From: Pseudomonadota bacterium
GTDB lineage: Bacteria; Pseudomonadota; Alphaproteobacteria; Rhodobacterales; Rhodobacteraceae
DNA length: 64,000 nt
Assembly (NCBI GenBank): GCA_039208585.1
Contig: JBCCQX010000004.1
Location: 52,031 to 116,030 of the forward strand
Direction of reading: 5' to 3'
In this document: positions 41,598-45,113 of the stretch, one piece after another
Position numbering within the stretch: the stretch's first letter is position 1
Layout of the letters: each line of letters starts with the position of its first letter
Translations under genes and position numbers: made by a program
The notes under the pieces: model-generated
What the model was told of the DNA's origin: nothing
What the model saw: the letters and a program-made list of their open reading frames with translations, nothing else
Databases searched by the model: none

Positions 41598-41683
41598 ATC
41601 TCATCGCTGCTTTTCTTCCAAAAACCAAACGGGCCGGCAATACGCACTGCCGACCCGTCTTGTGTTACGCAAAAGATGTGAAA

Positions 41684-41998
41684 TCAGTTGGGATCGCCGA
41701 ACCGAGAGCCACGCTTGAAATCGCCCACGGTCTGCGTCGGTGGGGCGATCCCAGAACAGACAGGCCGACCTGTCTTCCGGTCGAGGCGTGCAGAGAGATA
41801 TCCCTCAATACCGTCGTCGATGATCCAATGATCGCAGCCATTTGGATCAACCCATATCCCCGCCTGCAACTCGTTTAGCGGCTTGCGATCAAAACCACGG
41901 TCGATGGTTTTATCGGACGGCAACCCGCGATAACCTTCTGGGCCACACGCTGCCATGCCGAGCAGCATCAAACCCGCAAAAATGTGCTTTGTACGCAT
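41684..41998 (-). CDS. Small lipoprotein with a WVDPxGCxHW...PVC motif
   Basis: Signal peptide with lipobox MAAC (Cys18); GGAG Shine-Dalgarno upstream. Confidence 0.8.
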   Translation of the reverse strand: MRTKHIFAGLMLLGMAACGPEGYRGLPSDKTIDRGFDRKPLNELQAGIWVDPNGCDHWIIDDGIEGYLSARLDRKTGRPVCSGIAPPTQTVGDFKRGSRFGDPN

Positions 41999-42007
41999 GA
42001 TGCCCTC

Positions 42008-42637
42008 CTATCGCACGCAAAGAATGTCAACGCGGCGATTTTGGGCCCTACCCTCGACGGTCGCATTAGAAGCTATGGGTTGGCGTTCGCCAAATCCACG
42101 GATGTCAATAACGTTCGCACCCGCGGCAGCAGCCACACGGGCCACGGCGTTCGCCCGGTTCAGGCTAAGTGTTATGTTGTATGCGTCAGACGCACGGCTG
42201 TCGGTGTGACCCGTGATAATGTATCCACGCGCCGGATTTGCATTGAAGAATGCGATCAGCGCCTCGCGACGCTGGGGCGATATGTCAAACTTGTCGGTCG
42301 CAAAATACTGATCGGCGGACAGTGATCCGCATGCATTCGGCTCCCGACATACGGGGATGCCGTGACGATTGACGTGCGGGGTCATGAAACCCTCCTCACC
42401 GTCATCCATCACCCAATGCTCGCATCCGTCAGGATCAACCCAGATCGTCGGGATGTACTGCCCCCCGTCACGCACCCGCTGCGAGGGCGTGTTGGGGTTC
42501 GTCACCTCATCAGGCAAATTTGCGTTTATCGAGCTGTTGCCCCGACCTTGCGCATGTACACCTGAACTGCTTAACACAAACAGGGCGAGCGCAAATGCCG
42601 TCAAGGCACTGCAGTTCGCCTTAAAATTACTCACCAC
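42008..42637 (-). CDS. Exported OmpA C-terminal (peptidoglycan-binding) domain protein
   Basis: GTG start 8 nt after AGGAG; signal peptide; GHTDSRAS..YN..LS..RA and NRRVDI motifs; N-terminal WVDPDGCEHW motif. Confidence 0.88.
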   Translation of the reverse strand: MVSNFKANCSALTAFALALFVLSSSGVHAQGRGNSSINANLPDEVTNPNTPSQRVRDGGQYIPTIWVDPDGCEHWVMDDGEEGFMTPHVNRHGIPVCREPNACGSLSADQYFATDKFDISPQRREALIAFFNANPARGYIITGHTDSRASDAYNITLSLNRANAVARVAAAAGANVIDIRGFGERQPIASNATVEGRAQNRRVDILCVR

Positions 42638-42786
42638 GATAACAACTCCTACGTAGCCCCCCAGGCCAGTGTGCAGCGCGGTTTCTTTCAAAACTCTTAA
42701 TATTACGATTTCTCTTTTCTGATCAATCTCATTTGAGACTAAATTCAAGTATCATAGCAAATCGTTCCATGATCAACCTGAAACAG

Positions 42787-44127: not shown

Positions 44128-44243
44128 GGCGATAAACAAGCTGTTGTGCATTGGCAAAAGCTGTAGCAGCGCGCAGGATCTCTTGCAATGCGACCGAATT
44201 TGACAGAGCTTCGCAGGCACAACAAACTAGCCCTTGCCGCATC

Positions 44244-45113
44244 ATGCAACACGCCAGCATCAAGAGTTTTATCCAAGCGCAGGCCAGCGCCCCGCTGAAA
44301 GGCCCGATTGCCATTGTTCTGGTGGAAGACGCGGTAGAAATCGAAAGCACGTTGCGTCACCATTTAGGACTGGGATTTCGCAGCGTCATTGCCCTCATGC
44401 CGCCCGTCTTTGATCTGCCGAGCGATCTGACGGCGCGTATCCACCGGATACATTACAACATGTCGCGGCAAAAAGCGGCGGAGACCGCCATCAACACGCT
44501 GATGCCCGCGTTGCGAAACGAATGGGTCTTTTACTGCTATAACGCTGAATATCTCTTCTACCCGTTTTGCGAAACGCGCAACGTGATCGAAATGCTTGCG
44601 TTTCATGAGGAAGAGCGGCGCGATGCGATGCTGTGCTATGTCGTTGACCTTTATGCGGATGATCTTCATCGCTTTCCAAATGCTGTCTCACTCGACCAGG
44701 CGACGATGGATCGGTCGGGGTATTACGCGCTTGCCCGCCGCGACGAAAAACGCGGGGGCGACCCAAAAGAACGACAGCTTGATTTCTTCGGGGGGCTCAG
44801 GTGGCGGTTTGAGGAACATGTCCCCAAAAACCGCCGCAAAATCGATCGTATCGCCCTATTCCGCGCCCGAAAAGGGTTGCAGCTGCGCTGGGATCACACC
44901 TTTGACGACGAAGAATACAACACCTATGCGTGCCCTTGGCATCACAATATCACGGCGGCGATCTGCTCTTTCCGCACGGCCAAGGCGCTGAAAACCAACC
45001 CTGGAAGCACCTTCGATATCGAGAGCTTCAACTGGCACAATTCGACCCCGTTTTCTTGGGACTCAAAACAGCTGCTTGATCTCGGGCTGATCGAACCGGG
45101 ACAGTGGTTTTAA
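44244..45113 (+). CDS. Conserved hypothetical protein, possibly GT-A/GT2-like
   Basis: 289-aa ORF with good coding character. The glycosyltransferase resemblance ('YNAEYLFYP', 'YVVDLYA') is weak. Confidence 0.65.
   Translation: MQHASIKSFIQAQASAPLKGPIAIVLVEDAVEIESTLRHHLGLGFRSVIALMPPVFDLPSDLTARIHRIHYNMSRQKAAETAINTLMPALRNEWVFYCYNAEYLFYPFCETRNVIEMLAFHEEERRDAMLCYVVDLYADDLHRFPNAVSLDQATMDRSGYYALARRDEKRGGDPKERQLDFFGGLRWRFEEHVPKNRRKIDRIALFRARKGLQLRWDHTFDDEEYNTYACPWHHNITAAICSFRTAKALKTNPGSTFDIESFNWHNSTPFSWDSKQLLDLGLIEPGQWF

Follow-up and report, generated by a model that had tools for sequence, protein, structure and literature searches.

To our knowledge, Alphaproteobacteria lack Braun's lipoprotein (Lpp), and the way in which their outer membrane is attached to the cell wall is only partly known. 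Two attachment routes have been described, namely the Tol-Pal system and, in some orders, beta-barrel proteins bound covalently to the wall (PMC9275681), and the peptidoglycan-bound outer-membrane proteins of Rhodobacter are still unidentified (PMC10470522). A stretch of 64,000 nucleotides (nt) from a Rhodobacteraceae bacterium (assembly GCA_039208585.1, contig JBCCQX010000004.1, positions 52,031 to 116,030 of the forward strand), further referred to as the window, carries two adjacent genes on its minus strand, namely gene A (42008..42637), coding for an exported OmpA-like protein of 209 amino acids (aa), and gene B (41684..41998), coding for a lipoprotein precursor of 104 aa, each with one copy of the same small module. 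Among the envelope connectors made of a lipoprotein and an OmpA-like protein, this pair is most likely a novel variant. Proteins A and B may form a two-piece, non-covalent link between membrane and peptidoglycan, similar to Pal and RmpM, a reading to which a rough probability of 0.4 is given because the joint between the two modules itself rests on inference.

Comparison with known envelope proteins

In Pal, a lipid anchor is connected by a flexible linker to an OmpA-like domain that binds peptidoglycan non-covalently, and A and B together hold the same three elements, with linkers of similar length. Indeed, the geometry fits Pal, as approximately 30 residues separate the lipid from the module in B and only five residues separate the module from the OmpA-like domain in A. 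Natural single-chain versions, with lipoprotein signal, module, and OmpA-like domain in one protein, were retrieved as well (P0358 and P0246). Unlike in Pal, the anchor and the wall-binding domain are located on two chains, each with an extra mini-domain, and the lipobox occurs on B only. Also, the pair is not encoded beside tolB but between miaB and phoH (80 of the 80 fetched loci with a classified organism), and the module family is confined to Rhodobacteraceae. Protein A scored below the cut-offs of both Pal models, namely TIGR02802 (54.5 bits, cut-off 125.35) and NF008067 (39.4, cut-off 261). The role analogous to that of Lpp, which the first-pass annotation had proposed next to the one of Pal, fails on the fold and on the C-terminus, since the model of B is a beta-sheet that contains neither a coiled coil nor any helix of four residues or longer, and B ends in ...GDPN, without a C-terminal Lys.

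In Neisseria, RmpM (RmpM/PIII) is exported without a lipid anchor; a short N-terminal part contacts its partner in the outer membrane, and the protein contains a disulfide. It binds peptidoglycan non-covalently through its OmpA-like C-terminal domain and interacts with PorA/PorB porin complexes, stabilizing the membrane (PMC4226279). Compared by description only, the architecture of A matches that of RmpM, namely export without a lipid anchor and an OmpA-like domain. However, RmpM has beta-barrel porins as partners and an N-terminal segment of unrelated sequence, whereas the presumed partner of A is a dedicated lipoprotein with a paralogous copy of the same domain. Another case is YfiB, an OmpA-like outer-membrane lipoprotein that sequesters the periplasmic protein YfiR, a regulator of a diguanylate cyclase. 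Here too, an OmpA-like envelope protein and a small periplasmic partner are encoded next to each other, and YfiB was among the best PDB matches of the OmpA domain of A; yet, YfiB is itself the lipoprotein, YfiR has an unrelated fold, and no cyclase gene was found near the pair. The YiaD, YfiB, and other NCBIfam models were matched by A below their cut-offs (NF053611, 88.8 with a cut-off of 175; NF053585, 73.8 with 128; and NF053612, 69.3 with 250), and the YiaD/YfiB-type matches covered the OmpA-like part of A only. Finally, DalA scaffolds L,D-transpeptidases. This small peptidoglycan-associated outer-membrane lipoprotein of Rhodobacter sphaeroides (RSP_1200; approximately 18 kDa) is encoded beside an L,D-transpeptidase gene and was reported in 93% of the Rhodobacterales as well as in Terrabacteria (PMC10470522). 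A protein of the OmpA family, RSP_1033, has been co-precipitated with DalA. Protein B and DalA have in common that they are small, peptidoglycan- or envelope-linked lipoproteins of a previously uncharacterized type of Rhodobacterales; an identity of B with DalA was rejected on size (approximately 9 kDa for mature B), neighbourhood, and distribution, the two being set apart by description only.

Architecture of the two proteins

Two open reading frames (ORFs) with a 9-nt gap had been reported in the first-pass annotation, together with export of both products. Both ORFs and the peptides quoted from them were retrieved with this gap, and both products carry an export signal, namely a type-I signal peptide on A and a lipobox signal peptide on B. 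Protein A starts with the signal peptide MVSNFKANCSALTAFALALFVLSSSGVHA, followed by QG (42551..42637), which was read from the sequence and has equivalents in homologues; it would be cleaved by signal peptidase I (SPI) between ...SSGVHA and QG, and A is without a lipobox. Mature A consists of a variable, low-complexity N-terminal region of approximately 35 residues (42446..42550), poorly conserved in the alignment, a first copy of the module (IWVDPDGCEHWVMDDGEEGFMTPHVNRHGIPVC; 42347..42445), delimited by BLASTP, alignment, and modelled strands and containing the Cys pair C12/C37, and an OmpA-like peptidoglycan-binding domain recognized by Pfam (42017..42331), which has its own Cys pair at its ends (..NAC-G.. 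and ..IL-C-VR). Protein B carries a signal peptide with the lipobox LLGMAA-C18 (MRTKHIFAGLMLLGMAA-C; 41945..41998), of which the lipid-modified Cys18 was invariant across 61 aligned lipoproteins, and a second copy of the module (IWVDPNGCDHWIIDDGIEGYLSARLDRKTGRPVC; 41756..41857), delimited by BLASTP, alignment, and AlphaFold strands. This module is flanked by two regions that are specific for B and conserved in its homologues, namely the N-terminal motif D29-K-T-I-D-R-G-F-D-R-K-P-L41 (41876..41914) and the C-terminal tail SGIAPPTQTVGDFKRGSRFGDPN (41687..41755), with P-P-x-x-x-G-D-F/Y as conserved core. In the general form of the former motif (D-K-T-x-D-R-G-x-D-x-K-x-L), K30, D33, G35, and L41 were invariant in 19 sequences; its D and G persisted in a divergent clade, in which the tail motif survived too. 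The earlier description of the lipoprotein as essentially the module alone was hence wrong.

The OmpA-like domain of A matched Pfam OmpA (PF00691) with 50.8 bits (cut-off 27.2) over model positions 1-98 of 98, corresponding with residues 148-238 of the long ORF. It also matched 31 solved OmpA-like domains at E <= 1e-8, including those of PA0833, OprF-C, YfiB, and Pal. In solved OmpA-like domains, the Asp of GHTD and the Arg of NRA bind the diaminopimelate carboxylate of peptidoglycan. Both motifs were invariant in 22 paired sequences (G114, H115, T116, and D117, and R132 and A133, respectively). A set of relatives of A of 313-365 aa (P0122-P0127) contained one module followed by two OmpA-like domains with a Pro-rich linker between them, and with a Cys pair in each OmpA domain. 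This duplication of the Cys pair together with the domain supports that each pair forms an intradomain disulfide.

In the mechanism proposed, A would be a soluble periplasmic protein, composed of a disordered N-terminus, the module, and the wall-binding domain, whereas B would consist of the lipid-Cys anchor, a conserved linker, the module, and the conserved tail. The module of A would dock directly on that of B, thereby forming the joint. Anchored by the lipid of B and bound to the wall through the OmpA-like domain of A, the pair would bridge the peptidoglycan and the membrane that holds B, most likely the outer one, and so act as a tether. It is tentatively proposed, with due reserve, that a lipoprotein and a periplasmic OmpA-like protein dock on each other homotypically through the disulfide-closed mini-domain, in which case the pair would be a lineage-specific 'split Pal' of Rhodobacteraceae, including marine roseobacters.

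A mini-domain without a described family

A BLASTP comparison of A and B yielded 19 identities (56%) and 28 positives over 34 residues (E 2e-13). Conservation was counted over 112 unique pairs, thus 224 modules, with module-internal numbering. Both C12 and C37 were invariant in all 224 modules, and a C12-C37 disulfide probably closes the module. Furthermore, G11, C12, W15, D18, G20, E22, G23, G33, P35, and C37 were invariant or nearly so in both types, as was Y24 nearly across all pairs. D10 was invariant in A and occurred as D or N in 102 out of 112 B modules, D8 was present in 103-105 of the 112, and W6 was gone from divergent B lipoproteins. In the divergent clade mentioned above, which has kept the pair, the module of A reads WIDDDGCMHWWADGG and that of B AIAYDPDGCQxWIIDDG. 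The consensus given in the first-pass annotation thus held across the 112 pairs, except that two of its positions were variable: H14 was retained in 103 out of 112 A modules but only in 81 out of 112 B modules, and D19 was replaced by G in 30 out of 112 A-type modules.

The module was said to be unnamed, and this was confirmed in all searches. Neither Pfam nor NCBIfam matched B at E <= 1, and in A only the OmpA part was matched; a precomputed Pfam domain was present in none of the 120 listed B homologues. A search of the module profile against PDB sequences gave matches of 9-15 residues only (designed beta-propellers and the PQQ-type entry 3hxj), none of which passed as a stretch by itself, and a Foldseek search of the PDB with the module model gave a best E of 0.93. 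A known family was hence ruled out by Pfam, NCBIfam, the PDB profile search, and Foldseek, the propeller matches, of 9-10 residues, not being at the level of a domain. Full-text literature searches returned no description of this gene pair. The module is a real and conserved family of extracytoplasmic mini-domains of approximately 35 residues, uncharacterized so far.

AlphaFold2 modelling of mature B with an alignment of 61 sequences indicated that the module is a three-stranded antiparallel sheet (E30-33, E39-44, and E49-53), which the predicted disulfide would close. The predicted local distance difference test score (pLDDT) was 90 or higher for 36 of the 87 residues and averaged 81-96 in the four 10-residue blocks that cover the module. 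Definition was poor for the initial 20 residues and at the C-terminal end; the N-terminal motif had a pLDDT of 58-72 in this monomer model, and confidence fell towards the end of the tail, with block means of 80 and then 49 and values below 50 for residues 84-87. In addition, a pseudo-fusion of both proteins was modelled as a single chain, based on the natural same-frame read-through of A, stop, and B, with the TAG read as Gly and an alignment of 21 paired read-through and 78 unpaired rows. In this model, the module of A also showed three strands (E35-38, E43-49, and E54-58), and pLDDT was below 50 for residues 1-4 and 9-32, thus in the N-terminal region of mature A.

Alternatively, the module could be a structural element that binds Ca2+ or Mg2+ and stabilizes the envelope of marine bacteria, which is very unlikely. 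D18 and E22 do not vary in either type, D10 and D8 are largely kept, the DPDG and DDG turns are similar to loops that bind calcium, and most hosts are marine, but H14 and D19 are not invariant, and Asp-Gly turns are equally well explained as formers of beta-turns. Moreover, the modelled sheet would place the two acidic turns far apart, at its opposite ends, and Pfam matched neither B nor the module part of A with Excalibur, EF-hand-like, or other calcium-binding motifs at E <= 1. The metal site of D/H/D/D/E residues put forward earlier is therefore doubtful, as H14 was replaced by G, N, A, V, T, or I in 31 out of 112 lipoproteins and D19 is the variable position mentioned above. A smaller acidic site, formed by D18 and E22, may bind a metal.

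Distribution and genomic context

An exhaustive hidden Markov model (HMM) search of 1.84 billion representative proteins yielded 260 clusters only, and a scan of one genome per species yielded at least 576 loci. All 80 classified loci belonged to the Rhodobacterales, among which Roseobacter, Sulfitobacter, Tateyamaria, Roseovarius, Roseivivax, Rhodovulum, Antarctobacter, Amylibacter, Dinoroseobacter, and others. In a sample of the Alphaproteobacteria, the module was found in four out of 401 genomes, all four Rhodobacteraceae, and in a sample of this family in 249 out of 401 genomes (248 out of 400 genera; approximately 62%). Almost all positive Rhodobacteraceae genomes held exactly two copies, approximately 600 nt apart; single-copy genomes were very rare, and four or more modules per genome were found in none of the 401 sampled Rhodobacteraceae genera. 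The HMM survey of the module thus gave Rhodobacteraceae as its range in the class-wide sample, with two adjacent copies nearly always. As the pair is almost always inherited together, it probably acts as one envelope unit.

Gene A was located directly upstream of gene B on the same strand in 74 out of 80 loci. In the window, both genes share their frame and are separated by the spacer GAGGGCATC (41999..42007), which contains a Shine-Dalgarno site; among 62 related loci, the gap was mostly 10-14 nt, with GGAG or GAGG directly after the stop codon. The two genes probably form one co-transcribed and translationally coupled unit. A strong intrinsic terminator, composed of a 15-pair stem and a T-run (41627..41660, minus strand), ends this unit ahead of phoH. 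The neighbours in the window are miaB and a divergent glycosyltransferase-like gene upstream and phoH, ybeY, corC, lnt, and metK downstream. The glycosyltransferase-family-2-like gene (window positions 44151-45113, plus strand), divergent from miaB, kept its position in 71 out of 80 related loci.

Ten module-less Rhodobacteraceae genomes (L156-L165) were inspected at the same position. The miaB-phoH junction was nearly empty (50-250 nt) in four of them and held unrelated sequence in five, mostly envelope genes, for instance those of an outer-membrane beta-barrel-like protein and of a TonB-dependent receptor; in the remaining genome, miaB was not found within 3.5 kb. Envelope genes thus seem to have landed repeatedly at this junction. 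A lone lipoprotein of approximately 70 aa, with a weak module-like stretch (DGCWFIVIEDGLSGVM…NGKLVC; E 8e-5), was encountered elsewhere (L108, genome G542, C8:67690-67782), between genes of a hydantoinase pathway and lacking a neighbouring partner; this match may be due to chance or reflect remote relatedness.

Paralogy, rearrangements, and decay

The first-pass annotation had considered A and B as paralogous, and they are indeed ancient paralogues. All 224 modules had a nearest neighbour of their own type, and the identity between A and B was 51% within genomes and 50% between genomes, indicating that the duplication predates the radiation of the family, with no sign of gene conversion. Type-specific conserved positions occurred as well, such as R28 and D30 in B. 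Modules were typed as A or B by nearest neighbour, in place of a module-only tree; such a tree was too short for a clean split between A and B, with clean clades in the main group and unresolved divergent clades.

Rearranged versions of the pair were found too. On the metagenome contigs L154 and L155, the order was reversed, with a small module-only lipoprotein ahead of a three-module protein that is exported via SPI and may or may not contain an OmpA domain, and the pair adjoined lysE and a PG_binding_1 gene. Locus L153 contained two adjoining proteins composed of lipoprotein signal, module, and OmpA domain, and in L152 a small module protein preceded a lipoprotein with two modules and an OmpA domain. 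Single-chain forms consisted of a lipoprotein signal followed by two modules and an OmpA domain (P0246), two modules (P0243), or one module and an OmpA domain (P0358), and tandem arrays of two to three modules in one chain occurred in P0241, P0242, and P0244. Of all the evidence, this adjacency through changes of context and order, together with the fusions, argues most strongly for a joint function of the two module proteins. In genome G636 (L125, contig C7:45543-46278), both genes contained an in-frame stop at the Trp-15 codon (TAA in A and TGA in B), with a further stop in the OmpA domain of A, and the locus seems to have drifted towards adenine and thymine overall; these stops are consistent with joint decay, thus pseudogenization of both genes.

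These observations bear on the explanation that A and B are tandem duplicates frozen in a stable housekeeping block, without functional interdependence. The miaB-phoH-ybeY-corC-lnt block is highly conserved, so that insertions tend to stay, and the same junction holds unrelated envelope genes where the pair is absent. However, adjacency was kept in three other genomic contexts, in reversed order, and in fusions, the short conserved spacer points to coupled translation, and single-copy genomes are very rare, while both genes of G636 carry stop codons. Frozen duplication is most improbable on these grounds.

Arguments for and against a tethering role

Several results weigh against a two-piece tether of A and B. 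The pseudo-fusion model had a predicted template modelling score of 0.48 and was without confident contact between the modules, so that it neither supports nor excludes docking, and the pLDDT of the modules amounted to 55-64, down from above 90 in B alone. Raw mutual information between A and B flagged several pairs of positions, such as R/H at A28 with D/N at B10 (67 H-N and 34 R-D combinations); however, phylogenetically independent contrasts left one to four covariation events per pair (p >= 0.25). Both modules are acidic, which argues against simple charge complementarity. The pair was absent from 38% of the sampled Rhodobacteraceae genera and is hence dispensable. The genome under study also contains a canonical Pal-like lipoprotein (contig C7) and eight other OmpA-like proteins, indicating that the pair is an addition to Pal and not a replacement. 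Lastly, the peptidoglycan-binding domain that had been ascribed to the partner of the lipoprotein is present on A of the window but is not invariant: it is absent in Litoreibacter and Aestuariibius, in which the partner of B contains the module only, with an SPI signal and a lipobox, respectively, and it is degenerate in some others. Wall binding can therefore not be an invariant function; the module pair is the constant part and the OmpA domain is facultative.

Such a facultative OmpA domain would suit a pair that, rather than tethering passively, scaffolds or regulates some periplasmic enzyme or machine, as YfiB does by sequestering YfiR and DalA by scaffolding L,D-transpeptidases, with the two modules as platform and the B-specific motifs in contact with a client. 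The strong conservation of the latter motifs outside the module, which a mere tether would not need, points in the same direction, as do the PG_binding_1 protein adjoining the variant loci and the precedent, in Rhodobacterales, of small lipoproteins with roles in the divisome or in peptidoglycan remodelling (PMC10470522). Yet, no conserved third gene accompanies the pair, miaB, phoH, ybeY, corC, and lnt being a housekeeping block, and no client protein could be named. A scaffolding function is hence considered unlikely.

Alternatively, the module may bind a ligand of the envelope, such as peptidoglycan glycan strands, lipopolysaccharide, or a different polymer, through W15, Y/F24, and often W6, together with acidic residues. 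A and B would then each bind the same ligand independently, linked by co-regulation only, and B alone would tether. The absence of docking from the pseudo-fusion model is in line with ligand binding, and a tiny sheet, closed by a disulfide and bearing conserved aromatic and acidic residues, is reminiscent of small carbohydrate-binding domains. Similarly, the tandem arrays of two to three modules resemble multivalent binding repeats, and the module has repeatedly been joined to OmpA-like domains, with or without Cys pair. However, the near-invariable presence of two copies of two distinct types would not be expected if the module were a simple binding repeat, W6 is missing from divergent lipoproteins, and no similarity in sequence or fold to known binding domains was found with Pfam, the PDB profile search, or Foldseek. 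Ligand binding is thus somewhat unlikely.

If the modules of A and B do dock on each other in a two-piece connector, as proposed above, the module would be a new portable unit for protein-protein docking in the periplasm, also in the two- to three-module arrays and in the fusions, and this 35-residue unit could serve as a periplasmic dimerization tag. As a new small extracytoplasmic domain family, it merits a database entry. Envelope stability and vesicle release shape the interactions of roseobacters with algae, and the pair is a candidate extra envelope connector or scaffold in these ecologically dominant marine bacteria.

Gene boundaries, database entries, and irregular loci

Gene A starts with a GTG at 42637, located 8-11 nt past an AGGAG, and ends with a TAG (42008-42010); an alternative GTG start at 42640 is equally good. 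Gene B starts with an ATG, and its stop codon is located at 41684-41686. The AT-rich intergenic leader of approximately 150 nt between miaB and gene A (42638..42786, minus strand), with a guanine-plus-cytosine content of 0.39 versus 0.55-0.60 in the flanks, is the presumed promoter region; an Rfam search of this leader matched no family, and no CtrA, sigma-E, or sigma-70 motif was common to the 79 upstream regions searched.

Public gene calls start late for both B (P0001, 94 aa) and A (P0121, 169 aa) and thereby drop the lipoprotein and type-I signal peptides, so that automatic annotation would miss the export of both proteins. For A, 3723 homologues were retrieved, which go by 'OmpA family protein' in Sulfitobacter, Tateyamaria, and other genera; the 1582 homologues of B are annotated as 'hypothetical protein' or 'lipoprotein'. 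An A-type protein (P0204) was also encountered among the transcripts of a marine eukaryote transcriptome collection (MMETSP); it presumably originates from an associated roseobacter and hints at expression of an A-type gene.

Two loci deviated from the common gene structure. In Ponticoccus litoralis (L056:3083-4189), the C-terminus of the OmpA domain was frameshifted and A and B formed a single ORF of 368 aa, which is probably a sequencing error or a pseudogene. In genome G414 (L096/L111, C1:571378-573192), the two modules were 1.7 kb apart instead of 0.6 kb; gene A was seemingly interrupted in its OmpA domain, and the OmpA remnant ran into B without a stop.

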